Part shown: piece after piece, positions 6,001-57,042 of the stretch
Numbering within the stretch: the first letter of the stretch is position 1
How the letters are laid out: the number at the start of each line of letters is the position of its first letter
Assembly (NCBI RefSeq): GCF_018977255.1
Contig: NW_024704752.1
Coordinates: forward strand, 8,432,001-8,496,000
Source: Callorhinchus milii
Taxonomy: Eukaryota
Direction of reading: 5' to 3'
DNA length: 64,000 nt
Notes under the pieces: model-generated
The model's database searches: none
Seen by the model: the letters and a program-made list of their open reading frames with translations, nothing else
What the model was told of the DNA's origin: nothing
Program-made: the position numbers and the translations under genes

Positions 6001-8619
6001 AACAAACTGCTATATGCAGTATGTCGGCCGCTTAGTGTAACTGAGAACATTGCCACAGAGATCATGTCAGACTCTCAGCTTCTGCAAATTGCATCATATC
6101 GGCATTTTGCTTCACTGCAAGCGACATCTGTTTAAATCCTGAATTTCAGGATTGTACAAGTGCAAATTGCATTGTGTAAGGGTCTTTAAATCTATCACAA
6201 AAACATAAAAACAAGTCAAAACCCAAAACACTGCAGATGCTGGAAATCTGAAACAGAAACAAGTCAGTCAGCCCATGGTGCCTGTGCCAACTCTTTGAAA
6301 GAACAATGCGTATAGTCCCAAACTCTTGGCTTTTCCCCATACTCTTTCACATTTTCCTTTTTCAAATATTTGTCCAAAACGATTATGAATTCTGCTTCAA
6401 CAACTATCGGTGGTAGCGAATTCCATGTCATAATAACCCTTTGTTTGAAACAGTTACCTTAAAGTCTCCCTTTGATTTTTTTGGTAATGATCCTGACTCA
6501 TATCATATGTCAGTGTGGAACACTGTTCGAAAGATCAAATTTGACATTGGCAGAGATGCTCTGTTTCTTTGGATGCAAGAAACTTTTCCTGCTTCAAAAC
6601 AGAAGTAAATGTTTGCATTATTTTTCAATGACAGAATGGGTTTAAACAGAAAAAATCTGGACTGAAATGCAGAGGCAGAAAACATGGATGTCAAGGTATC
6701 TTCCTCCCAGCATCATGCCAAATGTTAGGTTCAATTTTATGGTTGAGATGGGATGTTCGATACAACACTGTGGTTAAAATCGGATTACACTGAACCGCCT
6801 TCACACCACAAGAAACGACACCCTGACATCTTTACTACGTGAGTAACACTGAGTGGAAAAGCAGCAGTAAGCAGCACAGTGATGGAAAACCAGTCCCCTG
6901 TGGAGCTCGATGTTACTGTTTGTCGGAGATGGTAACAAAGCCTCTTTGTATAACATCTAAAATCATGCAACTAAATACGATGAATCCAATTAATATTCAA
7001 CTCGATTCAGAACAGTTCTGAACTGCAACCTCTTAGTATCTCTGCTGGTCAGTAAAAAATATGCCAGTGTAGGGTGGGGAGAGACTATTCCTATAGGGAC
7101 AGTGATCTCAATGCTATCCATCTTTCAGATGAGACATTAAACTGAAGTCCTGTCTAGGTAGACGCTAAAGATCAATGGCACTAGTCAAAAAGAGAAGGGA
7201 GCTCCTCCTGATGTCCTAGCTAACAATCCCCCAAATAAAATTTGTCAATAATTTCATAGCTGTTTATGGACATTGCTGTGTGCAAATTGGCTGCCGCAAT
7301 TGCCAACACATACACAGTTAATATTCTTAACAGTAAATTTTTTGAAACGCTTTGAGATGTCTCAATGACATGATAAGGCACTATTATCCAATCCAAAAAT
7401 AATATTAATATTTAATGTCTGATGTCCCACATTCCTAAGTGGGGGAGCTGTATCAACCTTGCCAGGGAGACATAGGGAGGTTGAGATCCAGGGAAGCAAC
7501 TTAATGAGTGCGCTAAGTGTTGATTTCAATCCAGTCAGGAAACAGAAAGTAGGAAAACATGGAGAATGGCATGTTGGAGCTTGAAGAAAAGTGGGGAAAG
7601 GTTCAGATGCATAATGATCGTAACGGTATGAACAGACCACAGAAAAATAGGAACGGTGGTCGTGGAGTGGGTAGAGGTTGGAAGCCAGAAGTCAAAGAAG
7701 GATCATTTATCAACAAGCGTTTAAGTTCTGTCCTGTCCAGACATCTGTGAGAGGAGTTAGTAAAGTCTCTCTAGATAAAGGAACAAATTACTATAATGCT
7801 CTTTTAAAAGGCAGTTCACGTAGAACAGATTGTTCTATTTACACACTAGTATCAATGTCCCCTGTGTATTGGTGCCTATGTGTCAGCTGGAGCTATGGAG
7901 CATCAGCTATGTTTTGCTGAATCTCCTCTTGTTTTTCAGTCTATATATAGCAGGAAGCTGCTCACTTATGCTCCAAGTGCCTGACTATGGAGCAATGGTG
8001 AATAATCCCACCACAGTACATCCCCATCCGAGCCAGAGGGCTGGTCGCTTGTCCACAGAGAGCGAGGGTGAATTGGTGGGTGCTTTGGTGGCATCTCCAA
8101 ACCTAACAGCTCAAATAGCGACACTGGCACAGGGCTGGCACCAAGTTGCTCAATGTCCCTCAACCAGGCGGCGACCTGAGGTGTCAGGAGGTGGGAACAA
8201 AGTCAACTGAGGGAGAAACAAAAGGCAATCAAATAGTTAGGGAGAAATACAATTAAAACAGAAAATGTGCTGATCTTAGTCGATCTGTCCAGTTCAATGT
8301 CCCCATGAATTGTACCCACATGATTGGAAGAAAATACACAGCCTCAAGCCACGCTTTGACTTCCCAGGTTGTGGATTATTAAAATAGAATAACAACACTT
8401 TACTCCAAGGCCAAGGGGAGACTGAGCTGAGGAGCCACCGCTTCAATGTCACTCCTCCCCGCAGCACTGAGAGACAAGGACATCAATGCTGAACTGAAGC
8501 CGAACAGTTTTCTTGATATGAAAGAGAAATAAACTTGAGGTTGGGGCGAGAGCTGAAGCTTTGGGAGTCAGTGACAGGAGAGCTTACACTGGGGGCGCCT
8601 GCACAGTGCTGACTGACTG

Positions 8620-9188
8620 NNNNNNNNNNNNNNNNNNNNNNNNNNNNNNNNNNNNNNNNNNNNNNNNNNNNNNNNNNNNNNNNNNNNNNNNNNNNNNNNN
8701 NNNNNNNNNNNNNNNNNNNNNNNNNNNNNNNNNNNNNNNNNNNNNNNNNNNNNNNNNNNNNNNNNNNNNNNNNNNNNNNNNNNNNNNNNNNNNNNNNNNN
8801 NNNNNNNNNNNNNNNNNNNNNNNNNNNNNNNNNNNNNNNNNNNNNNNNNNNNNNNNNNNNNNNNNNNNNNNNNNNNNNNNNNNNNNNNNNNNNNNNNNNN
8901 NNNNNNNNNNNNNNNNNNNNNNNNNNNNNNNNNNNNNNNNNNNNNNNNNNNNNNNNNNNNNNNNNNNNNNNNNNNNNNNNNNNNNNNNNNNNNNNNNNNN
9001 NNNNNNNNNNNNNNNNNNNNNNNNNNNNNNNNNNNNNNNNNNNNNNNNNNNNNNNNNNNNNNNNNNNNNNNNNNNNNNNNNNNNNNNNNNNNNNNNNNNN
9101 NNNNNNNNNNNNNNNNNNNNNNNNNNNNNNNNNNNNNNNNNNNNNNNNNNNNNNNNNNNNNNNNNNNNNNNNNNNNNNNNNNNNNNNN
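8620..9188. other. Assembly gap
   Basis: N run just upstream of the ApoD-A TATA box. Confidence 1.
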
Positions 9189-9254
9189 ATCCCTCGGGGC
9201 TGAGGTCCAACCTGTGGCTGTTTGATCGCTCTGATGGCGTGTGCGCGGCTCCGG

Positions 9255-9365
9255 TATATAAGGAGGCGCTGCGGGGACTGTGCACTGGAGACCGACACAC
9301 ACACAGCGAGTGCGACTGTGACTCACACCGACCCGCACCTCTCCAGCCTCGGCCCGGCCCCCGGG
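9255..9365 (+). promoter_or_regulatory. TATA box and non-coding exon 1 of ApoD-like copy A
   Basis: TATATAA at 9255-9261 in a CpG-rich patch; strong donor GG|GTAAGT at 9365/9366; acceptor TTTCAG before 10626 leaves 19 nt of 5'UTR ahead of the ATG. The TSS itself is inferred. Confidence 0.75.
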
Positions 9366-10644
9366 GTAAGTGATCCACCGTCAGGGGCGGGTGTGGGCGG
9401 TGTGTGCCCTTTGCTGGTGGGTCCCGGAGCTGAAGGCTGATCAGTTGCTGCCGTCTCTGCTGATCAGTCACCGGATGGTCGAATGAATGATGAATGAATG
9501 AATGAATGAATGAATGACTGCGCGGATCTGTGTGTAACTGTGACCCGGTGTCCGGCCCCGGGACTCGCCTCCTTCTGGGGATCAGTGGCCGCTGCTGTTT
9601 GCTCTGATCACAATGTGGGCGACTGGCACAGGTCACAAGTCGCCCGGACAGGTTTGCAAGCCCCGGGCAGTGGGAGCTGCATCGACCTGATTCACTGACA
9701 TCGATTGCAAACCACTTGAAACGAAGGCTGAAGGTTTGATTTCACGCTCTCAGTCCGATTGGAAAAGCTTTTTGAATGAGTTTAATGATCTGCGATTAAT
9801 TCACACGGAGAGAACTCGCAACTCGGTTTAAGCCGAATAGACAGATGTGTTTTTATTGTACAGCGTTGGGACAAACAAACAAACCCTCGACATTCAGAAT
9901 GAACAGAAATACATCATTTCTGTTCTGATGTCAGTGAGACTTTGCTCGTGTCGGACTGTGGCTTTGCTCGGGTTGTGGTGTAAAGGACTTCATTGAGAAA
10001 CGACTGTTCCTCCAGTTCTGCGGGAAAGCAGTTCGGGAGCGACTGAAGAGTGTTCCACATTTTCTGGCGTTCTTCAATTTTAAGACTATGATTTTAAGCA
10101 TAAGATCAGGTGGAATGTTGAGACGGGGATGGAAACCTTAGCTGTTTTTTTCCCCTCCTCTACCCCAGGGACACTCAGGTTAACTTAATGCCCACAACCA
10201 CAACACTACAGAATAGGTCATCAAACTTAGTAGGTTGTTTAGCAATAGCAGTTTGGTTTGTCTACAGAAACACAGTGGCTGCATTTCACAGTAAAATACA
10301 GTGAAATAAAACACAGTAATAATAATATTAATTGTATTTCCTTGTATTTGATATAGTACCTTATCACATCTTTGAGACGTCTCAAAGCGCCTCACAGAAT
10401 ATACTGTAAAGTGAATTGACTGTATATTTTGTGGGTGGAACGCGGTAACCAATTGAGCACAGCAGTGTCCAAGAAACAGTCATGGATTGAGTGAACAAAT
10501 TATTATTATTTTTGGAGGGATTATAAACCACCTCGAGGTCCTCACTGTCTCTCTTCCCGTTTCCCATTCAGTCATTGTCAGAGCGATGCAGTTAAGGGGA
10601 TCTCTGTGATTATTTTGTGTTTCAGGTGCTCACTAGACATTAAC

Positions 10645-13600
10645 ATGCAGGAGATGCTGTTGACCCTGTTGGTCGCCACCCTCTGTTTCACCAAAACAAG
10701 AGTGCGAGCCAGCTGTGCCAATCCACGGGTGCAAAAAGAGTTCAACATAGAGGAGGTTAGTGACATTAATGTGTTCAGTTTGTACAATTGAGCGGTTCCT
10801 TCTGCAAGGCCTCTGCTGAGGCCAATGACTGGTACAGTGGTTTATACACTTTGTACCCATGGGTGATCATCTTTAGTGAGTGGAAATTGAACGCTAAACA
10901 TCATTTTAAAAGAATAATTTTTGTGACTGAGTAGACATGACGGGACAATGGAATCATTGTCTGTCTCTGTGTTACAGGTAAGTGTTCTTTATTCTGGCTC
11001 CGTGCTGAAAGCCTTCTTTTATTTGTTAAAACCAAGCTCTGTAAACCTATCACCTCCAACCTTGCCCGGTTCCGCTGACTCCCCATCCCCCAGAGGATAG
11101 AGTTCAAAATCCTCGTCCCTTGCTCCTCCTTATCCCTGTGCCCTGCTAACTGCATCCTGACCTGTCAGCTCACTCCGCTTCAAGCCCCCTCTCAAGATGT
11201 TACTCTTCGATCGCACCTTCGGTCACACTCGTAACCCCACCCTCCCTGGTCTCCACCCCTCCTGATCCCAACCCCAAGCTTGGGTGCAAATGTTTAACTG
11301 TCTTGGGTTGTTCTCTCGACAAATTTGTTGTTGTAAACGTGATTATGTTTACCAAAGGAAAATTGGCTCATGTATTTTCAAAAAAATAACTTTCATTTTA
11401 AACGCCATTCATGTAAATGAACTTCCTCTTACATTTTAGACTTTTTTACCCAAGTTTGGTATTACTCCTCAGCCATTGTCATGTCTTGGATGTCATGGGC
11501 CTTGATCCTTGACAGAGCTGGCTCAATTTTAAAAGAAATCTAAGTTAGCGTTGTTTTCTGAATGATCCAAGCACTCAGCCATTGTTCCTTCAATTTGTTT
11601 TATGGTTTTACTCCACAGTACGTGGGCACATGGTATGAAATTGAAAGACTTTCTCCAAATGGCAAAGCACCAAAATGCAGTTCAGAAACATACATGGACG
11701 ACTCAAATGGAATGCTTCGGATTCTCATCCAGGAGATTACGTGAGTATTTAGAGGGAGTCCTTTGTTCATAGGAATCATAGTTAAAGGAGATTTAGTGTG
11801 CAAGGACTTTTCAAAGCTATTTGAAGTTTCTTTTTATTAAAAAAGGCATTAAAACTTGAACGACTGTTGCAACAAATTTAAATTGTTGACAAAGAATTTA
11901 AATTGTTAGCTGATTAACAAAAGTAAAGAGTAAATAATGCCATTGTTACCATTGTACTTGACATGTGTAAATACCCCCAAAATGACCATAAACATTTAAA
12001 GAATGGAAACTGTGATAGCCTCACAACAATCAGTGTCACAACCAATCTCAAACTGTACTGTTAATCTCCAGGAGTTCTTCAAAAGTGCAGCTTCATTTTT
12101 TTTGTGAACATCTAAGGGATGAATTTGCCATTGGAAAGGTGGGTAAGGGCTGTTACTGTGGACCTCTCTCAAAAAGAGCCGCAATGTACATCTTAGCTTC
12201 CTCCGTGCTGGCTAGAGCGCTTGCCTGCTGATCCTCTGCCTCTTCAACAGACGTCTGAGTATCATTGCTAAAAGTGCCACTCTGTCCTGGTTGATGGAGA
12301 AAATGGCTTTTTGAATACTGGGCAATGCCACAGGAATAGTTGAACAGAAGGAGACCTGAAGGAGAAGCTGGGGTTCTACTGGACCAGCAAAAGTGAAGTA
12401 GATTCCTTGACAGCATCCACATGTTGATTGTACAAAACATGTTGGGGTACATTCAAAATGGCTCCACAGTCACAGTACAAAGAAGGGTAGGGTGAGGTGG
12501 CTGGGATCACTGTGTAACCATTACTAACTAAATGACTCTGCACTTTGTGAAGGAAATTTTCAGGCTACTCATGAGATCCAAAGATCCTGTTTTAGTGACT
12601 CCAGCAAAAAGACCACCAAAATCCAGAAATATAATTTCACAATTTTGATGAACATACATTGTGATAAGCTGTTTTTTGTCAAGCCGCAAAGCATTTGTTC
12701 ATCTCATCCGGAAGGAGATAAGATGATGTTTTCTCAATGCGGGGACTCTACAGTGGCTCCTTTCAGAAGTTGGGAGTATATAAAAAAATGACTGCGTTCT
12801 CTCCCTCGTCCACACCTCTGCCATAGAACATCCAGCAAGTATGATCTGGTGTATTCTTTGTGTATTTCATAAATTTGATTATTTTTGAAAAGAGAAAACC
12901 TGTTATCGATGTAGCATTGAGTGTAAGATGTGACTCTTTCATGATAAAGCATTCTCAAGGTCAGCAAAATGAAGACAACCTCTCATTGCTAACTGCAGAA
13001 AAAGATCTCAGAGGGAAAAGCTGTAGCACAGAAATCTAACATTTGCCTAAGAGACAGATTTATTACTGACACAGCAAAAAAAAACACTGTGTTCAACTAC
13101 TAAGCATACAAAGTCCTTTGAGGAAGACCCTTAGGAACAGAAAGTAAGCTCAGAAACTGAGAAGCTTGGAAAGAGTTGGAGAAGTTGAGGTGGATTTCCT
13201 ACAGCTAGATCTTGTAAGTGCACTCTCTCCAAGCCCATACATAATTGTAGAACATAAAACAAAATGTATCTATTTTGAACTATTAATTTCACTAATATAG
13301 TTAAACCTGTTCAAGTAACCACCTCCATTCAGCAACCACCTTTTGTTAACCATCACCTTGGAACAGCTCGGACAAAAATTCTAAACAGAATAACAACAAT
13401 AAAATTACCAACAAACCCTTACTCAGAGGTCACCCTCATATAAAGGCCATTTTGGCCCAGTCGTCTGAAGGCAGGTTCGACTGCAGTCCAAAATATATGC
13501 TATTCAGTATTTGATTAGTCACAACCATTCAATAAACATTAATTTTCTCTGTACTTAGTGTCAATGTGAAAGTTCCATGATGCAGTCTTGATATTCTGCT

Positions 13601-16072
13601 TTTCATCTCTGCATAGATGGTTCTCCAAAACCTGGAGCTGAGGAACAAGAAAGCACAAGTCACATCTCTGAAAGCATCAGTGCTTGTTACCACTACCATA
13701 CTGTCCTGAAGGCACTGACTCATGCTGTGGGCCAAACTGATTATGTGGATGTTGGACAATATCCATTATTTCAGCCAAGTGGCCATTCTTTATGTGTGAC
13801 CCAGATAGTGGCAGGGTTGGCAGGTGATCAGATCACTGGGGCAATTCACTGTCAAGACCCGATCCTGACCAAACTCAACTTCCAGCTACGTGCTTCACAA
13901 CAGCTGGAGCATTGATACTTTCTGCTGAAGCCCGAGTGATATAAACATCATTGCCTGAGTCCAATATATTTGTTCTTGTCTTTTGTCCAGGGAAAATGGT
14001 GAAATGGTGAAGTATGATGCACAGATGTTTAAGGAGTCGCAGAAAGAGCCAGCCAAACGGATCATTATACCCTGTAAGTGCATGAGAATGCAGATTCGGA
14101 ACAGCCACCCACCATCTTCATACATTTCAAATACAATTAAAGAAATTCACCTCAATGACATTAAATTTGTGGAGTCCTGTAGCTCAGTGGTTAGAGCACT
14201 CGCTTTGCAAGCGAGAGACCTGAGTTCAATTCCAGGCAGAGGGCGAAACCTTGGGCAAGTTTCCTTACTCCACACAGAGCCTAATAATAATCCCTCCAAA
14301 AACAAAAATAAATTGGTCATTTTCAATCCACGACTGTTTGTGGGACATTGCTGTGCGCAATTGGCTGCCGCGTTCGCCCACAAATATACAGTCAATTCAC
14401 TCTACAGTGTGTTCTGTGAAGCGCTTTGGGACGTCCTCCCGACGTGAAAAGCGCTCTATCAAATGCAAGGATTATTATTATTATTAAATCAAGGTTCCAT
14501 CTGCCTATTCAGGTAGATGTTAAAGATCCCATAGCACTCTGAAAAATATTTATTCTTGTGACCTGGCCAACAATCTTCTGGATAAAATTAGTCATTCATG
14601 TCATAGGTCTTTGTGGGACATTGCTGCCCGATTTACCTACAAAATACAATCCTTATACTTTACTGAAAATCCTGTAAAGCATTTTGAGTCAATTTGATGA
14701 TGTGATAAGGTACTATATCAAATGCATGCATTATTATTATATTCTTATCTTGGGAGAGAGTACAATCTTCCTCAGTCAACTTCAATTCAGAGTTTTTTTT
14801 AAAGGTGAAAATGGAGAGAATGAGTTGTAAAAGTTATCTATTTATATGTGATATCATTGCATTTTACTTTCTAAGTTTTGCCCACAAAATTACACATTCA
14901 ATTCATTTTTCAGTATATTTTGTGAAGGCTTTGAAATATCTCAATGACATGATAAAGCGCTATATTAAATGCAAGCATTATTATTATTATAAGTTTGTGG
15001 CTTAGGGTGTGTGAATGATGTAGGGAATTTATAATATGTAAAAAGTAGAATTTTTGGTAAATATTGTTTTCTTGTCATTTTTATTCAGACGATGATCATC
15101 TGTCACAGATTCCCTTTGGAGGTACTGTCCTGTATCATCTATCATTGACTGTATCAATATTTCTAATTCATTGTAATATTTATAAGTTTTCTTATTTCTT
15201 GGCAATTCCTTGTAAGTGAATACCAATGAAGCTAAAGCAACATAAGTTAAGACTCTCCACGAGTTCCCTTTTTAAAGAAGGCCTCTCACCATCAGCTCAC
15301 CAAACAGTAATAGTTTTAAAATGCAAAGGATTACTTTGTATGCCCACAAGAAAGTAGGGAACAACAAGGTCCATTTTGCCAATCAAACCCTATTGCCATT
15401 AGATATCTACCCTATTAGCAGTATTACCCTAGTAATGTTTCGCCCTCAAAATACACACGGAATCTACTTAACAATATATTCTGTGAAGCACTTTGAGATG
15501 TCTCAATGCCATGATAAAGGCGCTATATCAAATGCAAGGATTATTATTATTTTTACTACTGTCCCAAGCATTCCATTTCCTAGAATAATACCTGTGCACG
15601 GAATTCCACCTGAACCATAATGCCAGTTTGGTAAAAATGTTATTCTATTTAAACCTACCTTCCTTCACTCCACTAGAAACATTAAACTCTGTGCCATTAT
15701 CCGATATGAAGGGTGCTATATAAATGCAAGTTGTTGTTATTAACCTCCTCCCTCCCTCCCCCCACTTTATTGACTGCTTGGACAATGCTGGCTTCATACC
15801 AGTTTAGTGATAATGTGTTCTGTGCTGTTTTCTTAGGTATATCTGCTGCATTGAATTACTTTGTGCTATCCACTGACTATAGAAATTATTCCTTGGTGTA
15901 TTCCTGCCATGGGTTTCCAGGTAAATATTCTAACAAAAAGGCCTGGATTTTATCAAGAGAAAGGACGCTATCTGCAAATATCACTAGCCGACTGCGTAAC
16001 ATCTTGACTTCAAACAAAATTGATACTGAGCACATGATTGTAACTGATCAAAGCGATTGCCCTTCATTTTGA
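10645..16072 (+). CDS. APOD: Apolipoprotein D-like lipocalin, copy A; join(10645..10755,11619..11740,13991..14073,15837..16072), 183 aa
   Basis: Four exons with GT-AG ends and matching phases (0,2,1), total 552 nt. Signal peptide MQEMLLTLLVATLCF; C-x-x-P-x-VQKEFN; lipocalin motifs YVGTWYEIER, EPAK, VLSTDYRNYSLVYSC, AWILSRER; ApoD-type C-terminus NILTSNKIDTEHMIVTDQSDCP. AATAAA at 16303-16308. Confidence 0.92.
13297..13486. mobile_element. Degenerate non-autonomous Tc1/mariner (Tigger-type) element
   Basis: Imperfect terminal inverted repeats TAGTTAAACCTG ... CAGGTTCGACTG. Confidence 0.4.
14171..14486 (+). mobile_element. Full-length tRNA-Ala(TGC)-derived SINE with L2-type tail and (ATT)n end
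   Basis: Head GGAGTCCTGTAGCTCAGTGGTTAGAGC (A box), CTCGC-TTTGCAA-GCGAG stem-loop, GAGTTCAATTCC (B box); body near-identical to other copies in the window. Confidence 0.9.
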
Positions 16073-17374
16073 GTAGGAACTTATTTCAGGCTCCACAAAT
16101 CATGCCACCCTTTCAATTCATGATTTATATGGTTTGGTATTGGCATCATTCTGTAATATTTGTTTCCCAATTATTGCCCAAGATCAATTATTCTCTCTTT
16201 GCTTATTGGCTTCAATAGTGGAGTGTGCTGAACACTGTTTTGTTTTGTGTATTGCAGCGCTACTAGAAAATCTGTACCAATATCTGTTATTTTAAGCAAA
16301 ACAATAAAATTATACTGGTGTTTATCTTATAATATGCTGTACAGAGTCTGTTTAAATAGGTTTCCAATGCTCTGGTGATCCTTCCAGATATTGCACACAT
16401 AATTTCATCTTTATCCATACTTTTCTGCCTATAGTCAATTACCTACAAACTCGGGTATGATCCAAGCAATATGTTGCAATGGACCAAGCACCTACCTACT
16501 CATTCATTCTCATTATGTAGAATTCCAATAAACCAAATCCCTTCCCAAACACTCCCACTGTGTAGGTTTACAATGTTCCAAACCTTTTCCTGTTCTACAG
16601 AATCCAAGTGGATCAAATCGATCTCCATTCATTCCTGTTGAATAGAATCCGATTGGACATAGCTCCTTCTCATTCATTCCATTCTGTAGAATTGAAATGG
16701 ATCAATTGAATTTCAAATCACTCCAAACTGCCTAAGCTTCCAGTGAGCAAGCCATTTTCCAATTCTTATTAACAATTTCAACATTGGCTAATGGTCAGCT
16801 GGGTATCTGACAAATACCCAAACTAGACTAAAAGTTCACATATGTATGCTACCTAAGCATATAAATTTCCCTGTGTCTGGATTGGATTGCACACTCTCTC
16901 TCAGGAGGGGTAGGGTGGGAGCCAAGGTTATCGAGAACCCAGAGTATGCTGGAGTTTAATCAGCTAAAACTGCCTAGCCCTGGCTGGCAAGCTTCCTGCT
17001 GGCTTGCAGTGCTATCAGAAGCTCAGTGGGAAGAATCCCTGCCCCCAGTGTCTGGTCTGCCTCTGAAAGTCCTGACGACGAACCAGGCTTGCTAGTCAGA
17101 CATCAACAGTGCCTTGGAATACTGTGGACCTGCCTGCAGCAGTAACCAGCCTATTGAAACTACACATTATTAACTCAATTCTGATATTCCATTGCCAAGA
17201 ACATCACCTTGGTGTTAGCTGAGCTCCAAAGAGATCCTGCTTACCTCCAATGCCAAGAGGATAGTGACTACTGGTTGGTTATTTGAATCCCAGGTTTAAC
17301 AACAACATTGTTGTTTGAGCCTTCAGTAGGTGGATAAAAGGTACCAGGAACTCGCTGTTTAACATTCATTAGCA

Positions 17375-17449
17375 GTTCTGACGAAAGGTCAATGACCCCT
17401 CTCTCCATAGATGCTGCCTATGTGTTCCCAGCAGCTTCTGTTTTCATCC
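17375..17449 (+). mobile_element. Short Penelope-like fragment with 20-bp target-site duplication
   Basis: Shares TCTCCATAGATGCTGCCT with 36393-36410; flanked by CTGTTTAACATT(C/T)ATTAGCA at 17355-17374 and 17450-17469. Confidence 0.65.
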
Positions 17450-18780
17450 CTGTTTAACATTTATTAGCAAGATAATAATGTTTTCCTTTTCATCCAGAAG
17501 GCATGAACTAATGTTGGTGTATAGGTCCATGCATGTTGAATGCCCTCCACTGCTTCAACCAAGAACTATTATTCATGTGTATGTGAGTGTTGTTAGTTAG
17601 TGATAATGGGCATCATGGGCCAGCCCAATATTGCTCTCATCCAATAATCTTCCACACAGGGGTCACATAACGGCATTAAGAAGCAGAAACTACTGCTGTT
17701 TATTGCCCACCATGGGAACAGAGGCCGATTGTGATCCTTCTGCTACAACAAGGACAGAGATAAGAAAACACAGCATAATCTGGAACCTTCCCATTCTGCT
17801 CATTCACACGCAGCAGTGAACTTGAATCATTTGAGCTCCTGTTATGTTTCTTTCTAGTCTAGATTATATGATTCGAGGATATAGTAACTTGTTTTAGAAT
17901 TGGAATATCTTGTTCAGTCTGAGTAAAATTGGCTGAACATGAATTTATATAACAATACTTGCATTTGATATAGCATCTTATTACATCATCAAGATGTCTC
18001 AAAGTGCTTCACAGGATATACTGTTAAGTGTATTGACTGTGCATTTTGTGAGTGCAAAAAATGAATTTGTGCATGCAATAATTGTCAGGATCATCAGAAA
18101 CAAGTACAGCTTATCAGAACATAAATACCAGTTTAATTTTATATTTTGGTTGCTGAAAATAACAACATTGGTACAGATTTTCTAGCAGTGTGGTAATACA
18201 CAAAGCAAAATGACAGCTTGCAGCACGCCCCTTTACTGATGTAGATTCAAGCTACAGTACACTTGTGTTGAAGCAAATAGAGATGAGAGAATAATCAACT
18301 GTGGACAACACATCTCACAGAATGACATCAAAACGTCTGAACTGAGTCGAAAATGCTGAGATGATTTGTGGAGCCTGAAATCATTAGTTTCATGTATATC
18401 CTGAGTCAGTTATTCTATTTACACCATATTTTGATAGCGAGAGAAAGGAGCTGATCCAAATTAGTTATAACATGGGAAAAAAAGCCTCTTGCTTTGAATC
18501 ATGCTCTTTGAGGCATTGCTGCACCACCAGGGTTTCATGATATGCTGGTTTGCGTGCAGTGGCCAATGTGGTTAATCGGCAGCTGTGTTTTGCAGGTGTT
18601 CAGTTTGGGACTATTGGTTAAAACAAAAATCTCACTGGATTCATATTTTAGCATCTCCAAATATGCGATATAATCCCATTTCTACTAATTCAGTTGCAAA
18701 GTACAACAAAATAAACTAGAAATCAGCTGAATTCAATACAGGTTTAAACTGCTGATTTTGCTGAAAAATGTCACCCCCTC

Positions 18781-21700
18781 CTAGATAAAAGATGAGCAAT
18801 CCTCGTGATCGACTGTAGCTATATTCTTGGTGGCAATGTTATATGAAGCCAGGATTTCATGCAGTTGATTAGTGGTATTTTCAGGAAGATGCATTTGTCT
18901 TGAGAAAATCCAGTAATGATCTGATTGTGTGCTAAAAATTCCGAGGTTCACAAAGCAGGAATACACCAAAGAATAGTTCTTATAGTCGGTGGATAATACC
19001 CAATACGGAAAATCTTGATCAGGAAAAATAATAAAATACAGACATCAAATGTGGAACAAAACACTGTCCATTAACTAAACAGTCAACAAAGTTAATTTAA
19101 TCTATCTAGATATTTTTATTTCAGCCTCATTATTAAGACTGTAGGAAAACAGTAGGTGGTGATTTTATTGCGGAAACCACAACTTTTAACACATACCACA
19201 ACATTTTATAGTTACCGCAAAAGTTTAACGATTATATTGAGTAATCATTGAAAGTTGGTAGAATGGTCCATGTTCTTTAAGAGAACAACAACTTGCATTT
19301 ATATAGCACCTTTCATGTCAGGAGAACCTGCTCCATCTTTGGAGTGCGCATTGAGTGATTCTGCTAATTGATTTTCATTTAGTAATTCATACCAGTCGCC
19401 AAATGAAAGGACTTACTAAGAAATAAGACATATTATGCATATTACAGTGAATTGTAAAAACCTCTTACATTTTATAAGAAGTTTTAACAAGCTCATTGGT
19501 ATATTAAGCAATTTATTATTTATACATGGATAATTCTAATACATACCTTCAAAGGATGGTTTGAAAGGTGATGCTGTATGTGGATTAAAAATAAAAGAAA
19601 ACGTTATTTGCCAACAATTTAATTTGTTATATAGCAATAGTTCCATTTCAAACATGGAATATTACTCTAGTTTTCAAACATACTCTCTCTCCATTGCAAA
19701 CATTCTGGTCTTTCTTAGTAATTTTTCCAGTTATGGTCATAATTCCTTTGAACGTTTCTATCTAGGTTCTCCAATCCTCTAACAACAACATGATTCCGTT
19801 TATAGAATGCCTTTCACGTCGGGAGGACGTCCCAAGGCACTGAACAGTCGGGTTGGGACCCGAGCAGGGGGGAAATGGTCAGGGTGAGGGAAGGGAGGGA
19901 GCGAGGAGGGGGTAGAGTGTCGAGAGGGGAGCTGAAGGCACGGTTGAAGAGAAAGATCTTGAGACCGGCCTTGAAGGAGGAAAGGGAGGAAGCAAGGCAA
20001 AGGCACTGGGGGATGGAGTTCCAGAGCCTAGGGGCTGAGAGGCTGAAAGCCCGGCCACCGATGGTAGGGCAGGGGATATGGAGCATACCGGAGCCAGAGG
20101 AACATGTATGAAATATACTTTCTTATATGTTTTACCCCACTCCTTGCATCCTCACTGTTTTTAAATCAAGGTGCATTTGTTCCCAAAACCTCAGCAGTAT
20201 AAAACTTCTGATCTACCTCAGTCTTCCCTTTCTGGGCTGGTAGCTCGAAAATAGAGAGATGAGTTATCAGGAATGATTAAATTAGATAGATTATTTTGCC
20301 TTGAAAAGAATTGTCTCTGAGAGGACCTTGTAGATGTATATAATATGCTTAACAGGTTACAGAAAGTAAACCCAAATTAATATTCTGATATATCAAGATA
20401 GCAAGACCAAAGGATACAGGTATAGGAGAAGGGCAATTTCAAGACACCAAGAACTGTTTCATTACACAGAGTAGAATCAAAAGCTAGACAAAATTACCAG
20501 GAAGATAATGATAGTAATCCTTGCATTTGTTATAGTGCCTTATCATAATAATAATAATAATTCTTGCATTTGATATAGCGCTTTTCACATCGGGAGGACG
20601 TCCCAAAGCGCTTCACAGAACACACTGTAAAGTGAATTGACTGTATATTTGTGGACCAACGCGGCAGCCTATTGAGCACAGCAATGTCCTACAAACAGTC
20701 GTAGATTGAAAATGACCAATTTTATTATTACTTTTGGTTTTGGAGGGATTATTATTAGGCGTGTGGAGTAAGGAAACTTGCCCAAGGTTTCGCCCTGCCT
20801 GGAATTGAACTCAGGTCTCTCACTTGCAAAGCGAGTGCTCTAACCACTGAGCTACAGGACTCCCGCTGAGATATCTAAAAGCTCTTCACAGAATATACTA
20901 TAGATAATAATAACAATCCTTGCATTAGATATTGCGCTTTTCATGTCTTCTAGACGTCTCAAAGCACTTCAAACTGTGTATTTTGTGGGCGAAATGCAGT
21001 AGCCAATTGCGCATAGCGTCCCTCAAACAGTCGTGGATTGAATGACCAAATTATTTATTTATATATTTTGAAGGGATTATCACCCCCTTCATAATAATAA
21101 GGTGAGTGCAGTAATGAGTAATGAGACTACTGCGCTCACTCTTTTTACTTGAAATTGATAATGACCAAAAATCTCAAACTCACTGACAAAATATTTATCT
21201 AGTTCTATAGCAGCAGGAGTAACAAGAATTCTTATGTGCCACGCCAATTCTTCATGTACGTACTAGAACTGTAGAAAAGTTTAGCTGGCTCCTTTGTAGA
21301 GGTCGGATATAGCTCTGCGTCGTGTGACTTCACCTTTTTATCTCTGGATAAAAGACAAGAAAACAGGAGTAAAATTCTGGTACTGTTTCTTTCACATTTT
21401 CTAGTCTCAGACAGGTGCTGCTGCCTAACAAGAAGCCATCAGATACATATTCCAAGGTGGGGTAGCAGTGTCGGTGTGTAGAACATGACTGGACTTGGGA
21501 ACTAATGGGATCATTCAGGCCTTCATCCCCTCAAGGTTGATAAAATGAATACTATATCTAGAAATATCTTCAAATCTCCTCCTCAGAGAGGAGGAAATAA
21601 GTGGAATTTCCCTGGGACTAACCTGACTCTGGGGAGACACTTGGTCAACAAAGTCACACTGATCACTTGGGAATTTTCTGAAATTCCCTGCAATAATAAA

Positions 21701-24700
21701 TTTGAAAACAAAGGTTTTAAGACTAGAACCAAAAGATTTTGGGACCTCAGTTCTCTAAAATTTTATGATAGGAAATCCCAGTGTAAAGTTATAGCAAATT
21801 AACTGATATTTTGAAAAATCGGTGAGTCAATACTGAGTGAATGATGCATGTTAAACTTTAGATGCACTAGGAATGTAACTGGTTGGCAGAATATTGACCT
21901 TCTAAAGGGTGCTCTGAAAGTTACCAAAAATCCACTGGATTGAATACGAATTGAAAAGCTTGAACTGTAGAACTGAGAATTTTTTCTTGTATAGGTTATT
22001 TGTAACATGGTGACTGCTTTAAGCGCTCTGAGATGCCGTATATAAATCCAAGTTGTTGTTGTTTAGCATTTTTCGGTTTACGCAGAGCAAGGAACACATG
22101 TTGTCTGTCCATTTGGTTTGTGCACACTCATTGAGGAGCTGAATTGTTCAGAGAGCTCACCCGCTTTTATGATCACGCTAAGTTATTCCCATGTGCAGCA
22201 GTTCTATTTCGATCTTTATCTTTCAGGAAAAATGGTACCTTCTTGCATGGTTCAATTACTACTTGTGTATTCCCTAAAGATTTGATTCTTCAGGCAAACA
22301 ACCATGACCTTGAAACAAATCCCTGGACCAAATGAACATCTGAAGCTTCTCACTTTTCCTCTAAGGCAGGCTTTTCAAGACTACCTAAGGGCAATACTAG
22401 CTTCAACAACTACATTCCTACCATAGCAAACATAACAGTGTTCCCTAAAAACATTCTCTATGTGCCTGCATTTTGCATTTCATGATCATTTTTTCACTTG
22501 CACATGACTGGTAGGTCATAGTTTCATATAATTTTTTGTTTAATTAAGAAGTCTCTGGCTCGCATAGTCCTTATATCCTATAAAGTTAATACCAGGGATC
22601 AGAAATTCTGCTGGTCAGTAAAGTTACCAACTTACAATTATAATGGAGAAATCCCAAGTGCATGTCTCCAAGGTCAGTAACTTTACAAACCAGTGGAATT
22701 TCACATTTACTCAATAAAGGTTCAGGTGCCTTCAACCGTTCTATTTTATGTTACAATTCTGCAATTCGAGTTCTGGTATCACTTCTTACACAATGTACTT
22801 TTTTTGTGTGTAAAGAATTACAGAATGCAATAGGATGTGTTGTGGTGTCTCATTAATGCGAGTCTATCTCTTTCTACCACAAGTAACTCAGAACTGTGGG
22901 CATATTCTCCTCTGGTCAGTAAGTTTACCAAACTTGCCATGTTTTCCTATTATAAACTTTTTACACTTCCAACGCCTGTGAATATATAGATTGACAGAGA
23001 AGAAAAGAAATAACATGTATTTTTATAATGGTTCATCATATTAAAAAGTGCTTCTCCATAATTACTGTCAATTATAGTGAATGTTTTTATAGGCAAATGT
23101 GACAGCTATTTTTCCACAGCAGGGTCCCACTAACATAAATGATCAAATCATCAAGAGGATTGTTGGCCAGGATTTCCAGAAAAACTTTCTCCTCTTTTCT
23201 AACAATGTTATGGGATGCTTAATATCTACCCTGAACAGACAGATGGGACCTTGGTTTAACAAAAACAACAAATTCCTTTTTATAGTGGCTTTCACTTCAG
23301 AAGGATGTCCCAAAGTGCTTTGATTTAACATGTTCTCTTTCAATAAGGTCTATAGATTTTCAAAGTAACACAGAACTTATATTGGACAGTAATATTCTCT
23401 TTTACATTTGATCCCTATGGACAAACAATTCTTTCTCATTGCCATTTATCAAATACTTACACAAGCTCCTGCCAGCGAACTCCTAAAGCCACAGGTGATT
23501 TCCTGCTATAAGTTGTAGCAATACATTTGCCATTCTCAAAGTCCACATTTGATGATCGTTGAATTTCAAACCATGTTCCCAAGTACTGTGGCATAAAATA
23601 ACACATATAATTAACCGCGTGTCAGTGCATGGGTCATTCAAAATCAAACACCTATTTAGAAGCTTTTAGTGAAGCCCCATTTCAGAATAAAGCCCAGAGG
23701 AGAAGAATAGTGAAATAATAATAATAATCCTTGCATTTGATTTAGGGCTTTTCACATCTTCTAGATATCTCAAAGCGCTTCAGTGAATATGCTGTAAAGC
23801 AAATTGACTGTAATTTGTGGGTGAAACGCGGTAGCCAATTGCGCACAGCAATGTCCCACAAACAGTCGTGGATTGAAAATGACCAATTTATTATTGTTTT
23901 GTTTTTTGGAGGGATTATTATTAGGCGTGTGGAGTAAAGAAACTTGCCCAAGGTTTCGCCCGGCCTGGAATTGAACCCAGGTGTCTCGCTTGCAAGGCAA
24001 GCGCTCTAACCACTGAGCTACAGGACTCCACAAATAAACTAAGCAAGAGCAGTTTGGTAGCAAGAGTGTTATCATGTGAGCCAGGGTAATACCCTATCCA
24101 CTTCCCGTAAAATAGCTGCTGAGTCTCGTGCTACCATTTAGAACGAAGACACTGTAAGGCTCTAGAATTCAAGTGAGTCGAAGTAAATAGACTCATTCTC
24201 ATTCTGGCAGGTGCTGTTCATTCCAGCTCACCAGGGCTAAGGTCACCCTGAATAAGTTGATTAACTTAGCTCTGAACTGTGAGATGATTCAGGGCATCAT
24301 AATTCATTTCAAACAGGCTCCTTAAGCTCCTCTGAGCAATTTTTTTAACTTAAACTCTAAATATATTGCCCTACACACTCATCCTCCTCTCTGCGTTTTT
24401 GCAGCTCCAATGAATTCTTCCACAGCATGATTGTTGTGTTTTAGATTCTAAAGGAGCTAAATAATATAGATCATGACATGCTGTTTTGACTTGTCCAGAG
24501 TAGTAAAACCAGAGGACACGGCCTGTGATTGAAGGGATGGAAATTCAGAACAAATCTACACAAACGCTATTTCAGTGAGCGAATAGTGAACCCGTGGAAC
24601 AGATTCCCTAGGGAGAAGGCTGAAGCAGGAAGTGTTGATTCTTTCAAACACAGATTAGACATTTTTCTTTTAGGAAATAACATTATGGGATATGGTCCAT

Positions 24701-25287
24701 AAGTAGTTTGGGACATATGTGAGTGCGACGGCCTGGAAGGTGGAAAGCAAACTGGATTGGCCTTGGTCTTTTTTTGTCTGGCATTTCTTATGTTCTTAAC
24801 TTCAGGACTGTGGAAGCTCATTAATTTCCACCTACACCCAAGTTTTAATACTTAGCATCAACTAACTTAATTTACCTAACCTCTTCTCCTCACCTGATGG
24901 TGTCCCACACTGTGGTCCTTGTCTCTTCATCTAGACGTGTCAATATTAAAACAAACCTAGAGACCATCCGAGAAAACAGGGTGGCCTGATAACTCTTTGT
25001 ACTATTCAGTGACTGTGGAATGGGCCTTTCAGAAGGGAAATTGGTGAAGTCAAGTAATTATACATAATAATAATCTTTGCATTTGATATAGCGTCTTATC
25101 ACGTCGTTGAGACATCTCAAAACGCTTTGCAGAATATATTTGTGAAATATATACTTAATTCATCAATCTCACCAACCTCAAGAAAGTTGAAATCCTTTTG
25201 CACCTCTGGTTTAGCACAAGCGGCTTGCACTCTTGTAGTGGTGAAACAAAGGGATGTGACCAACAAGGTCCACAGCATCTCCTGCAT
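18781..25287 (-). CDS. APOD: Apolipoprotein D-like lipocalin, copy B; complement(join(18781..19013,21264..21343,23461..23585,25177..25287)), 182 aa
   Basis: Same exon phases as copy A, total 549 nt. MQEMLWTLLVTSLCF..CAKPEVQKDFNFLE / YLGTWFEIQRSSNVDFENGKCIATTY / DKKVKSHDAELYPTSTKEPAKL / FPYWVLSTDYKNYSLVYSC..WIFSRQMHLPENTTNQLHEILASYNIATKNIATVDHEDCSSFI*. Exons 3 and 4 were translated by hand (absent from the ORF track). Confidence 0.92.
19783..20100 (-). mobile_element. L2 LINE 3' end
   Basis: IGGRAFSLSAPRLWNSIP..LSSFKAGLK..LF. Other copies at about 11045-11310, 29870-30370, 33290-33550, 40705-40960 and 53360-53650. Confidence 0.85.
20549..20863 (-). mobile_element. Full-length tRNA-Ala-derived SINE
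   Basis: Reverse complement of the 14171-14486 family; flanked by extra truncated tails. Confidence 0.9.
23717..24029 (-). mobile_element. Full-length tRNA-Ala-derived SINE
   Basis: Same family, reverse orientation. Confidence 0.9.
24470..24797 (+). mobile_element. CR1 LINE 3' end
   Basis: KTRGH..L..FRTN....YFSERIVNPWN-type sequence and CTTATGTTCTTA tail. Similar fragments at about 20270-20510, 32612-32850 and 2900-3150 (-). Confidence 0.8.
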
Positions 25288-26330
25288 GTTAGTGTCCGGA
25301 GAGCGCCTGAAACACAAAGTAATCACAGGACTCCTTTACCACATGGCTCTGACAAAGACTGAATGGGAAACAGGAGGAGAGACTGACTGGGACAAACAGG
25401 ATCTCAAGGGAAAACTGAGGCAACTGTGTCTAACAAAGCATGAAACAAGGGCAGCAACTGGAAAAAATAAGCGCTGGAAATTCACAGCAAGTTGTTCAGC
25501 ATGTGAGTGAGGAAGGCAAGTTAATGCAGCTTTTCAACCATCCAGATACAGTATTGTTTTCAAATGCTCTAAACGGATGCAATGCAGACTGCTGCAACCA
25601 GCAGGTCAGTTGCCAAGTCAGGCATTTCACCCATTGATATAAAAACTGAATGGCCAATATCACTATTCAGTTATTATTTTTCACTTGCTTTCTAGATACA
25701 CAGATAAGATGTTCTGTTTATAACAATCCCACACATTTTCTCGCTGGACAGGCCAAGGGGAGGGAACAGTGCGGATTCCTAGCTCCGAAGGCCATGAATG
25801 GGAAGCCCAGAGACATGGAGAACTGGAGTCTCCCAAAAGTGACTGTTGAAGAAGAGGTGAGACACAAGTGATTTCAGGCTACATTGCCTGCATGACTGGA
25901 TTAATACTTTGGATGTTTCAGAACTCCACAAAACCTCACAAAAATGATGAAAAGTTACTGAACAAAAATTATAAAAACGCTAAAGTTGAAAACTTTGTGA
26001 ACTTTGAAAGAATGTTGTTAAATATCTATTTTCTATTCCTGGCAGAATTAACTTCCAGCTTCCATTTTGCTCCCTGAAACTGGGACAAAGCCAAATGTGA
26101 GATTCCTTCTCTTGCCTATAATTTCTTCCACTTTTCTTTTCTCCTAGGTTTCAAGCATAAGATATTTCTCGCTCTGGTTCTCTTTTCTCCCTGACTTGAA
26201 TGCCATTCCATCACCTGACCTCTACCTAGCCCTCTGCCCAGATCACTTTATGAATAAAGTCCCATTCTGCTTGATACCCTTCTTGTTCTTTCTGGGGCTG
26301 CTTAACTGTAGCTGCAAAATCTCCCCAAAT

Positions 26331-26406
26331 CAGGACCCTTTCAGGACCCTTTCCCAAAAGGATAAGTTCCCACAGGACCCTTTCCCAAAAGGATAGTTCC
26401 CACAGG
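26331..26406 (+). repeat. Short tandem duplication (~31 bp x2 plus partial)
   Basis: CAGGACCCTTTCCCAAAAGGATA(A)GTTCCCA repeated. A separate GGAACTCTCTAA x3 lies at about 26917-26950. Confidence 0.8.
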
Positions 26407-28060
26407 GGCCACTTTTAGGAGAGAGATTTTCATCACCAGGACCACATTTATAAAGAGCCTTCAGTCTCCTCTGTAGGTACACTTTGTGTGTTTACTGTCC
26501 CAAGTAAAATGAAGCAAAATAGACTGAGAAACTACCGGCTCTGTATTAAACCACTATATTAAATTAACAGATGGACTAGTGGTGGTGGATCAAAGCAATT
26601 CAGCTCAACATCTCTCCATTCGTCAGGAGAAGAACATTATGCAAGGCTCACCCACCCCACTGATCTCTGTGTACTGAAAGTGCAAGGGGGCAGACTTCGA
26701 GTACAAAAGCTTTGTGTTTGCCAGAGAATACTCAATTGTCACATAGCCTGTAATTGCAGATCCCTGGAAAACTGATATCTTAACAATAAGCCTCAGCTCC
26801 CACCATCTGTTACTGCTTTGCTGAGACCAAAGAGTGAAGGAGAGGAGGGAGCCTAATGAGGACTTCACCCAACACCCACACATCCAATGACTTAAGGAGA
26901 TTTATCCTATGACTGGGAACTCTCTAAGGAACTCTCTAAGGAACTCTGAGATCCCTTTCCAAAGGGGGAATCTCACGTGCAGTGTTCCTCTGTTCTCTCT
27001 ATTGGTAAGGCCATGATCCCAATGTGGAACTGAGCCACACACGACCAGGAAACTCGTAATGTAATATTTCTTGAATTTGATACAGATCGTTATCACATCG
27101 CTGAGAAGTCCCAAAGCTGAAATGCAGCCACTGTGTTTCTGTAGACAAACCAAACTGCTATTGCTAAACAACCTACTAAGTTTGATGACCTATTCTGCAG
27201 TGTTGTGGTTGTGGGCATTAAGTTAACCTGAGTGTCCCGGGGGTAGAGGAGGGGAAAAAAACAGCTAAGGTTTCCATCCCCGTCTCAACATTCCACCTGA
27301 TCTTATGCTTAAAATCATAGTCTTAAAATTGAAGAACGCCAGAAAATGTGGAACACTCTTCAGTCGCTCCCGAACTGCTTTCCCGCAGAACTGGAGGAAC
27401 AGTCGTTTCTCAATGAAGTCCTTTACACCACAACCCGAGCAAAGCCACAGTCCGACACGAGCAAAGTCTCACTGACATCAGAACAGAAATGATGTATTTC
27501 TGTTCATTCTGAATGTCGAGGGTTTGTTTGTTTGTCCCAACGCTGTACAATAAAAACACATCTGTCTATTCGGCTTAAACCGAGTTGCGAGTTCTCTCCG
27601 TGTGAATTAATCGCAGATCATTAAACTCATTCAAAAAGCTTTTCCAATCGGACTGAGAGCGTGAAATCAAACCTTCAGCCTTCGTTTCAAGTGGTTTGCA
27701 ATCGATGTCAGTGAATCAGGTCGATGCAGCTCCCACTGCCCGGGGCTTGCAAACCTGTCCGGGCGACTTGTGACCTGTGCCAGTCGCCCACATTGTGATC
27801 AGAGCAAACAGCAGCGGCCACTGATCCCCAGAAGGAGGCGAGTCCCGGGGCCGGACACCGGGTCACAGTTACACACAGATCCGCGCAGTCATTCATTCAT
27901 TCATTCATTCATTCATTCATTCATTCATTCATTCATCATTCATTCGACCATCCGGTGACTGATCAGCAGAGACGGCAGCAACTGATCAGCCTTCAGCTCC
28001 GGGACCCACCAGCAAAGGGCACACACCGCCCACACCCGCCCCTGACGGTGGATCACTTAC

Positions 28061-28171
28061 CCCGGGGGCCGGGCCGAGGCTGGAGAGGTGCGGGTCGGTG
28101 TGAGTCACAGTCGCACTCGCTGTGTGTGTGTCGGTCTCCAGTGCACAGTCCCCGCAGCGCCTCCTTATATA
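28061..28171 (-). promoter_or_regulatory. TATA box and non-coding exon 1 of ApoD-like copy B
   Basis: Reverse-complement match to the copy A element: TATATAA at 28171-28165 and donor GTAAGT at 28060-28055; exon 2 acceptor ends at 25307. Confidence 0.75.
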
Positions 28172-28231
28172 CCGGAGCCGCGCACACGCCATCAGAGCGA
28201 TCAAACAGCCACAGGTTGGACCTCAGCCCCG

Positions 28232-28684
28232 NNNNNNNNNNNNNNNNNNNNNNNNNNNNNNNNNNNNNNNNNNNNNNNNNNNNNNNNNNNNNNNNNNNNN
28301 NNNNNNNNNNNNNNNNNNNNNNNNNNNNNNNNNNNNNNNNNNNNNNNNNNNNNNNNNNNNNNNNNNNNNNNNNNNNNNNNNNNNNNNNNNNNNNNNNNNN
28401 NNNNNNNNNNNNNNNNNNNNNNNNNNNNNNNNNNNNNNNNNNNNNNNNNNNNNNNNNNNNNNNNNNNNNNNNNNNNNNNNNNNNNNNNNNNNNNNNNNNN
28501 NNNNNNNNNNNNNNNNNNNNNNNNNNNNNNNNNNNNNNNNNNNNNNNNNNNNNNNNNNNNNNNNNNNNNNNNNNNNNNNNNNNNNNNNNNNNNNNNNNNN
28601 NNNNNNNNNNNNNNNNNNNNNNNNNNNNNNNNNNNNNNNNNNNNNNNNNNNNNNNNNNNNNNNNNNNNNNNNNNNNNNNNNNNN
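28232..28684. other. Assembly gap
   Basis: N run at the equivalent position upstream of ApoD-B, bordered by (CTCA)n. Confidence 1.
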
Positions 28685-29902
28685 CTCACTCACACACACA
28701 CTCACTCACTCACTCACTCACTCAGTCAGTCAGCACTGTGCAGGCGCCCCCAGTGTAAGCTCTCCTGTCACTGACTCCCAAAGCTTCAGCTCTCGCCCCA
28801 ACCTCAACTTTATTTCTCTTTCATATCAAGAAAACTGTTCGGCTTCAGTTCAGCATTGATGTCCTTGTCTCTCAGTGCTGCGGGGAGGAGTGACATTGAA
28901 GCGGTGGCTCCTCAGCTCAGTCTCCCCTTGGCCTTGGAGTAAAGTGTTGTTATTCTATTTTAATAATCCACAACCTGGGAAGTCAAAGCGTGGCTTGAGG
29001 CTGTGTATTTTCTTCCAATCATGTGGGTACAATTCATGGGGACATTGAACTGGACAGATCGACTAAGATCAGCACATTTTCTGTTTTAATTGTATTTCTC
29101 CCTAACTATTTGATTGCCTTTTGTTTCTCCCTCAGTTGACTTTGTTCCCACCTCCTGACACCTCAGGTCGCCGCCTGGTTGAGGGACTTTGAGCAACTTG
29201 GTGCCAGCCCTGTGCCAGTGTCGCTATTTGAGCTGTTAGGTTTGGAGATGCCACCAAAGCACCCACCAATTCACCCTCGCTCTCTGTGGACAAGCGACCA
29301 GCCCTCTGGCTCGGATGGGGATGTACTGTGGTGGGATTATTCACCATTGCTCCATAGTCAGGCACTTGGAGCATAAATGAGCAGCTTCCTGCTATATATA
29401 GACTGAAAAACAAGAGGAGATTCAGCAAAACATAGCTGATGCTCCATAGCTCCAGCTGACACATAGGCACCAATGTACAGGGGGCGGAGATGTAGATATG
29501 TAAACAGTACATCTTTATCCAAGCCGCCTTTTAAAGTATTATTATCCCTCAACGCAACACTGAAAGAAAATGCACCACACACTTATACACAAGACCCTTT
29601 GATACAATGCTTTCTGATACACTCCACATCCTCTCTATAATTCTCTTATTGTGTCCACACCCTTTATTGTAACACTGCTATACACTACATCCCCTGTAAC
29701 ACAGATTTGCTCCAATACACCAAGACATCAGATTCATTATTAATCTCGCTCTGATTAAACCCCTCCCCGGCAAGATTAATACCGCTCCCCACTCAAGAAT
29801 GTGAGACATCAGAAGTTAAACAGTTTTGAGATTACTGACCCTGTGGGAATAGCTACACAGTTCAACAGCTTCAACTCATCCAAACATCCGCTGCTCTGCA
29901 CA

Positions 29903-57009: not shown

Positions 57010-57042
<33 letters not shown>

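Follow-up and report, generated by a model that had tools for sequence, protein, structure and literature searches.

The ApoD-like gene pair

We have analysed a window of 64,000 nucleotides from the elephant shark Callorhinchus milii, a chimaera (NCBI RefSeq assembly GCF_018977255.1, contig NW_024704752.1, positions 8,432,001 to 8,496,000 of the forward strand; all positions below are those of the window). It contains two intact ApoD-like genes, A on the forward strand and B on the reverse strand, which stand tail to tail and whose promoters and first exons lie in near-identical inverted arms. The parts of the pair between the arms are as follows.

10626-10755, 11619-11740, 13991-14073, 15089-15121 and 15837-16072, forward strand: exons 2-6 of gene A (protein P0001, 194 aa)
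25306-25177, 23585-23461, 21343-21264, 19573-19547 and 19013-18781, reverse strand: exons 2-6 of gene B (protein P0002, 191 aa)
10289-27117: spacer between the arms, 16.8 kb, containing both coding regions tail to tail

The gene models have six exons with canonical AG/GT ends and translate exactly to P0001 and P0002; the last exons are 100% identical to these proteins as named in the source. An earlier reading of the window from its letters alone (the sequence-only reading) had assigned five exons to each gene, having missed a micro-exon before the last exon, which measures 33 nt in A (15089-15121, forward) and 27 nt in B (19573-19547, reverse). This micro-exon aligns to a 10-residue gap in human ApoD, and RNA-like contigs reach two matching bases 5' of exon 6 of A, consistent with its inclusion. 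In contrast to human ApoD, C. milii has two copies, each with an extra micro-exon.

The two proteins are 47% identical overall and 40% identical over exons 3-6. Both match the Pfam Lipocalin family, and human ApoD (PDB 2hzq) is the top solved match to an A/B profile (E 3.6e-36). Four cysteines are invariant between A and B, as are the lipocalin-motif residues, which we take to be the GxW, TDY and SR motifs. Both proteins group with four elasmobranch ApoD-like proteins with support of 100/99, in trees built without any other lipocalin as outgroup.

Near-identical inverted arms

The 5' portions of the two genes are mirror copies of one another. Their features are listed here; the starts of exon 1 are predicted, about 30 nt after the TATA-like box.

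7868-10288, forward strand: arm A, with upstream DNA, a gap of N at 8620-9188, CpG-island promoter, exon 1 and 0.92 kb of intron 1
27118-29474, reverse strand: arm B, the mirror copy, with a gap of N at 28232-28684
9255-9262, forward strand: TATA-like box of gene A
28164-28171, reverse strand: TATA-like box of gene B
9285-9365, forward strand: non-coding exon 1 of A (predicted start), no ATG, donor GTAAGT at 9366
28061-28141, reverse strand: non-coding exon 1 of B (predicted start), donor at 28060
9481-9517, forward strand: (TGAA)n in intron 1 of A, 9.5 copies
27889-27945, reverse strand: (TGAA)n in intron 1 of B, 14.5 copies

Self-BLAST returns the arms as two inverted matches, 7859-8619 against 29483-28723 (761 columns, 99.3%) and 9195-10288 against 28231-27118 (1114 columns, 98.0%). 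About 500 bases per arm are N and lie outside the comparison. From 7868 on there are 5 substitutions in 1,846 determined bases, or 0.27% (Poisson 95% confidence interval 0.09-0.63%); two further mismatches, at 7866 and 7867, stand at the arm edge in the global alignment. That alignment recovers all five substitutions listed by the sequence-only reading (7965, 8154, 8534, 10167 and 10208), and the (TGAA)n length change that it described is a single 20-nt gap, or five units. The block holds a CpG island with a G+C content of 0.57-0.66 and an observed/expected CpG ratio of 0.74. G+C is 47-61% in the arm against 40-45% in the flanks, a difference confounded with the CpG island. No look-alike of the window was found in the other genomes searched.

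Contigs from independent runs

Logan contigs of four sequencing runs (X1, X2, X5 and X10) were aligned to 7118-27117, a stretch that includes arm A only. X1 and X2 are DNA-like and come from different samples of one study; X5 and X10 are RNA-like by guess. In both DNA-like runs one contig begins at 7868, immediately past the last mismatch between the arms, and one stops at 10288, the last shared base. In X2 the upstream-flank contig reaches 30 bases into the arm and stops there; in X1 the contig that lies in intron 1 of gene B passes 27117 by exactly 30 letters. Assuming words of 31 letters, such 30-base overlaps indicate forks with two entries and two exits, that is, a collapsed two-copy repeat. 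The block is therefore likely to be a real two-copy repeat. In X1 the arm contigs have depths of 17.4 and 17.1, compared with a mean of 10.5 and a maximum of 14.3 for 16 single-copy contigs; in X2 the arm values are 11.6 and 12.3, against a mean of 8.0 and a maximum of 10.8 for 15 single-copy contigs (all among the contigs listed, the comparison contigs being those that we judged single-copy). As a rough estimate, the likelihood ratio of two copies over one is ~150-180 in X1 and only 3.5-5 in X2. Depth summed in bins was discounted for contamination by short repeats, and the per-contig depths were used.

The RNA-like runs bear on the use of exon 1. An X10 contig joins exon 2 to exon 3 of gene A, and 24 letters precede its match to exon 2. 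At the contig depth of 7.87 these letters predict a value of 0.283 over the exon 1 bin, where 0.28 is observed, so exon 1 is likely to be spliced to exon 2 of A. The X5 contig of gene B exon 2 starts 29 nt 5' of the exon, as expected of a fork after a common exon 1: exon 2 begins with GT in A and with GC in B, intron 1 begins with GT, and the predicted fork follows the first base of exon 2. X5 would show the same fork if gene B had a different first exon of which an unspliced form was also present. It is likely that both genes splice from the same exon 1 sequence. In X10 the exons of gene A are covered, exons 5-6 of gene B are without coverage and exon 2 of B is almost so, but the runs were picked with a stretch that is mostly gene A, and contigs do not show absence.

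Older homology around the block

The near-identical block is surrounded by weaker similarity between the two genes, interrupted at the 3' ends of the arms.

6823-6946, forward strand: older collinear upstream homology, 78% to 30556-30433
7411-7469, forward strand: older collinear upstream homology, 83% to 29820-29763
7793-7865, forward strand: decayed homology directly upstream of the arm, to 29545-29477
10282-10524: SINE-like fragment (short interspersed element) at the 3' end of arm A
27062-27117: SINE-like fragment at the 3' end of arm B, in the opposite orientation relative to the gene
10547-10779, forward strand: layer of intermediate divergence, exon 2 with the adjoining parts of introns 1 and 2, 81% to 25383-25153
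16212-16342, forward strand: homology beyond the stop codons, likely 3' untranslated region, 77% to 18239-18104

Further low-copy collinear patches lie downstream at 11551-11648, 15165-15211 and 15867-16022, and all such patches, upstream and downstream, fall on the same inverted diagonal with 69-83% identity. The statement of the sequence-only reading that the later introns have no visible similarity apart from repeats does not hold, and the abrupt stop that it described applies to the 3' end of the block; the 5' end fades into residual homology. The homology abutting the 5' end has a local score of 42, which none of 500 random window segments reached (maximum 32). At the 3' end, past the SINE-like fragments, the genes have unrelated intron sequence of 0.26 kb (A) and 1.7 kb (B), and homology returns at 81% around exon 2. 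Between the A-specific 10289-10546 and the B-specific 25384-27117 no homology was found (score 29, equalled by 167 of 200 random segments). Because collinear homology continues on both sides, the near-identical block is nested in an old duplication of the whole gene. Capture of the promoter by a fresh insertion was ruled out, since homology extends past both ends of the block.

Layers of divergence and age of the duplication

The divergence of the coding exons, as first read from the letters, is borne out: 26 of 37 residues are identical in exon 2 and 16 of 41 in exon 3. By a simple pathway count with Jukes-Cantor correction, the proportion of synonymous differences between A and B is 0.31 in exon 2 (0.40 substitutions per synonymous site, from about 24 sites) and 0.65 in exons 3-6 (~1.5 per site, near saturation); the two classes differ significantly (Fisher p = 0.006). 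In the first 22 residues, A and B are identical at 17 of 22 positions, while matches to the four elasmobranch proteins range from 7/19 to 9/22. In the rest of the protein A and B share 60 of 150 residues (40%) and are no closer to each other than either is to the elasmobranch proteins (33-41%). A pattern in which paralogs are closer than orthologs is thus seen at the protein level only, in residues 1-22 against elasmobranchs. By these comparisons, the common ancestor of the two copies is likely to be more recent for exon 2 than for the barrel exons.

The arms form the youngest layer. In single-copy DNA the window differs from X1 and X2 at 45 of 13,673 positions, or 0.33%, from which the arm-to-arm value of 0.27% is not distinguishable (p = 0.83). 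Divergence between the arms is therefore at the allelic level, which points to very recent exchange. The arm differs from those of the other animals by 0.34-0.40%, a normal rate. The collapsed contigs of X1 and X2 carry the B-type letter at 7965, 8154 and 10208 and the A-type letter at 10167 (the four testable sites, unphased), a weak hint that these are polymorphisms and not fixed differences between the paralogs.

Trees were built from 33 and 20 proteins chosen among the best 120 of 207 matches, including all four elasmobranch proteins listed; no other chimaera protein was found among these 120 matches. With whole proteins, A and B form a pair that is sister to the four elasmobranch proteins (support 98/93). 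The duplication would date to early in the chimaera line or be older. Chimaeras and sharks separated ~400 million years ago (PMC5519329). If rates rose after the duplication, the pair would appear older than it is.

Probable gene conversion and rival explanations

Judged from these comparisons, it is probable that recurrent non-allelic gene conversion between the inverted paralogs keeps the arms alike, and that it is now confined to the CpG-island promoter. The best account of the earlier layer in exon 2, together with the allele-level identity of the arms, is recurrent exchange whose boundary has receded. The sequence-only reading had offered conversion and promoter replacement side by side; conversion is preferred, because older collinear homology lies on both sides of the block and exon 2 records an earlier, longer homogenisation. 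In the history that we propose, an old inverted duplication would have copied the whole gene together with 1 kb or more of DNA further upstream. A broken arm would then be repaired from its mirror copy 17-21 kb away, erasing differences. Where exchange lapsed, divergence and insertions would have blocked its restart, and the tract would have shrunk, withdrawing first from exons 3-6 and later from exon 2, the latter when SINE insertions and the length difference of 1.7 kb versus 0.26 kb split intron 1. What remains would be the CpG-island promoter and its shores. The tract may be held by selection for co-regulation or shared control, or it may persist neutrally, homology being self-perpetuating at an open promoter where breaks favour the open CpG island; the two ideas are not exclusive. 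Elsewhere in the window a second inverted pair, of short-chain dehydrogenases, has exons 66-74% alike and no homogenised block, so conversion of promoters is not automatic for inverted pairs in this region.

One alternative is an artefact, in which the assembly would have placed on both sides either one collapsed consensus or two alleles, of a single-copy block or of two more diverged copies. The sequence-only reading had raised misassembly because both arms have a gap of N at the same spot, and the arms do differ at the allelic level only; depth short of twofold and two variants of the runs that neither arm carries, both described below, also speak for it. The shared gap begins, however, at a (GAGT)n/(GT)n run that adjoins the CpG island, and a CpG island is also the site of the third gap of the window; given this position, gaps at the same spot in both arms are unsurprising. 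In two other samples the contigs fork at 7868 and 10288 exactly and overlap two of the flanks by 30 bases. This largely answers the concern, as with a single copy each of the three animals would have to be heterozygous for one and the same rearrangement. In addition, the part of intron 1 that is specific to gene B contains no further CpG island (CpG observed/expected 0.07-0.44). We regard an artefact as highly improbable. A single recent event, whether one long conversion or a promoter replacement, with no standing exchange, would fit the sharp 3' boundary, and a single pair of sequences cannot count events. Such an account leaves aside at least one earlier homogenisation in exon 2, and the arm divergence, being equal to allelic diversity and less than 1% of the synonymous divergence of exons 3-6, would place the event in a very small last slice of the history of the pair; this makes it decidedly unlikely. 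Purifying selection alone, conserving the promoter since the duplication, deserves next to no credence: promoters can be constrained, and the flanking patches of 77-83% may be conserved elements, yet the 99.7% identity extends over 0.75 kb of unremarkable upstream sequence as well as 0.9 kb of intron, and the arm differs from other animals at the normal 0.34-0.40%, so it is not unusually constrained.

A number of observations weigh against recurrent conversion of a real, old repeat. Two of the four junctions are seen in contigs; those between arm B and its outer flank and between arm A and its own intron 1 are deduced from the forks. Read depth, suggested at the outset as a check, places the arms deepest among the contigs listed but at 1.45-1.65 times the mean, short of twofold, and contig depth is no copy number. 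If 31-mers not shared between the arms cause the shortfall, their true divergence could be as high as ~1.4-2.6%. In summed depth the arm bin 7785-8451 (21.2 in X1; 15.2 in X2) is not clearly above repeat-poor bins (16-26; 11-17). X1 and X2 share a C at 8443 and a 2-base insertion at 8020 that neither arm of the window has, and one consensus may therefore serve both arms in the assembly. The tract is compared within one chimaera species, C. milii, only. With exon 2 removed, support for the A and B pair falls to 91/82, with branches of 1.14 and 0.93 on a stem of 0.26, and the approximately unbiased test does not reject a grouping of either copy with the elasmobranch proteins (p = 0.28), so the age of the duplication is loose. 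As a separate observation, small insertions common to both DNA-like runs and missing from the window occur at 8020, 11437, 11973 and 25327; these are either assembly errors or common alleles.

Possible inversion of the spacer

The idea, also put forward from the letters alone, that the arms could mediate inversion is geometrically correct: a crossover within them would invert the 16.8-kb spacer, keeping the proximal promoters unchanged and swapping the distal upstream flanks. Near-identical inverted repeats surround a unique segment here, and the contigs, being from short reads, end at the arms. Each arm also holds a gap, so in the window itself the orientation of 9189-28231 would rest on scaffolding links rather than contiguous sequence. 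In humans, inversions mediated by inverted repeats have been described, and they are often recurrent (PMC3961182).

Species without a working PRDM9 concentrate recombination at promoter-like features (PMC5519329). The C. milii PRDM9 is described there as having KRAB and SET domains without SSXRD and as undetected in testis RNA; by our reading of the table there, it ranks 6th of 63 zinc-finger genes for diversity at DNA-binding sites, and its zinc-finger array is not fast-evolving. A later paper counts this PRDM9 as complete (PMC8892340). No shark recombination map was found in our literature search, which covered main texts outside the subscription journals. It is conceivable, though we think it unlikely, that the promoter is locked by recombination: meiotic breaks falling by default in the CpG island would be repaired from the mirror arm, keeping the two promoters identical over hundreds of millions of years while the barrels grew as different as those of chimaera and shark, with occasional flips of the spacer that swap distal enhancers. 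If this were true, the locus would preserve, in layers that can be dated, a history of recombination directed to promoters in the sister group of bony vertebrates.

Neighbouring features

The dehydrogenase genes are arranged head to head at 43634-51990 (reverse strand) and about 57000-63414 (forward strand); both match Pfam adh_short, and they are presumably BDH1-like. Between them and the ApoD pair, a 342-codon frame at 38127-39155 (forward strand) encodes a leucine-rich-repeat protein (Pfam LRR_8) with a signal-peptide-like start, which we assume to be LRG1-like. A G-rich and a C-rich degenerate tandem array, at 55097-55558 and 55841-56232, are inverted and about 75% alike; a G-quadruplex or foldback context is possible. 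The short segment between them is CpG-rich and may hold an exon and a donor near 55710. Young SINEs, 92-97% alike and in both orientations, are found at 14171-14486, 20546-20863, 52942-53257 and 45915-46105; the copies at 14171 and 20863 form an inverted pair that spans the 3' ends of both ApoD genes. Finally, 35367-35460 and 36390-36449 contain a 60-base inverted pair (95%) around ~0.9 kb, which by eye resembles a fragment of a long interspersed element (LINE).

Comparison with known systems

The closest analogies come from mammals. In the BEX/WEX/GASP cluster, neighbouring paralogs have homogenised first non-coding exons, for which Winter and Ponting (2005) proposed recurrent conversion; the BEX2 and BEX3 proteins are 42% identical (PMC1274310). 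As in the C. milii pair, 5' similarity is kept while the proteins diverge. There, however, the shared element is a short motif of the 5' untranslated region in more than 20 mammal-specific genes with a single coding exon, demonstrated across species, whereas in C. milii it is a 2.4-kb block with promoter and intron, in an inverted pair of two genes, with an older layer visible and one species to judge from. SIGLEC11 and SIGLEC16 are also inverted neighbours, ~9 kb apart, in which ~2 kb of upstream and 5' sequence is 97-99% identical within each primate lineage, a less similar older region adjoins and a (GAAT)n tract is likewise present (PMC5701461). That pair stands head to head, is a young primate duplication and has a tract that takes in the ligand-binding exon; the C. 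milii genes are tail to tail and their tract is wholly non-coding, excluding a ligand-binding barrel that is ~40% identical.

Mosaic concerted evolution, with long-lasting conversion in part of a gene, is also known from BMP8A/B, DDX19A/B and TUBG1/2, of which BMP8A/B is inverted, but these have converted coding exons and diverged upstream regulatory regions, the opposite of what is seen in C. milii (PMC2720389). Human inversions such as FLNA/EMD and AQP12A/B have inverted repeats around segments whose reported range, 5.1-226 kb over such inversions, includes the size of the C. milii spacer, and exchange in a shared first exon alters little but gene position; the human inversions are polymorphic, while the C. 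milii segment is known here from one orientation (PMC3961182). Within the scope of the same literature search, no report on the C. milii ApoD pair was found. A term search of a paper on teleost ApoD (PMC6325677) gave no match for 'shark', 'gene conversion' or 'promoter', and passages of a lipocalin review (PMC8420045) gave none for 'Callorhinchus'.

Significance

The mechanism is thus already known from mammalian gene families, and the C. milii case is an unusually deep and wholly non-coding example of it. A practical consequence is that reads from exon 1 and the promoter are not assignable to either gene, and that gene trees are misled by exon 2. What makes the case unusually clean and extreme is that non-coding identity is at the level of alleles, the barrels have diverged like those of chimaera and shark orthologs, and an older layer is still readable in exon 2. 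As a small test, it bears on where recombination begins in a chimaera with a disputed PRDM9 status, and it is a natural experiment on whether identical proximal promoters force the co-expression of old paralogs.

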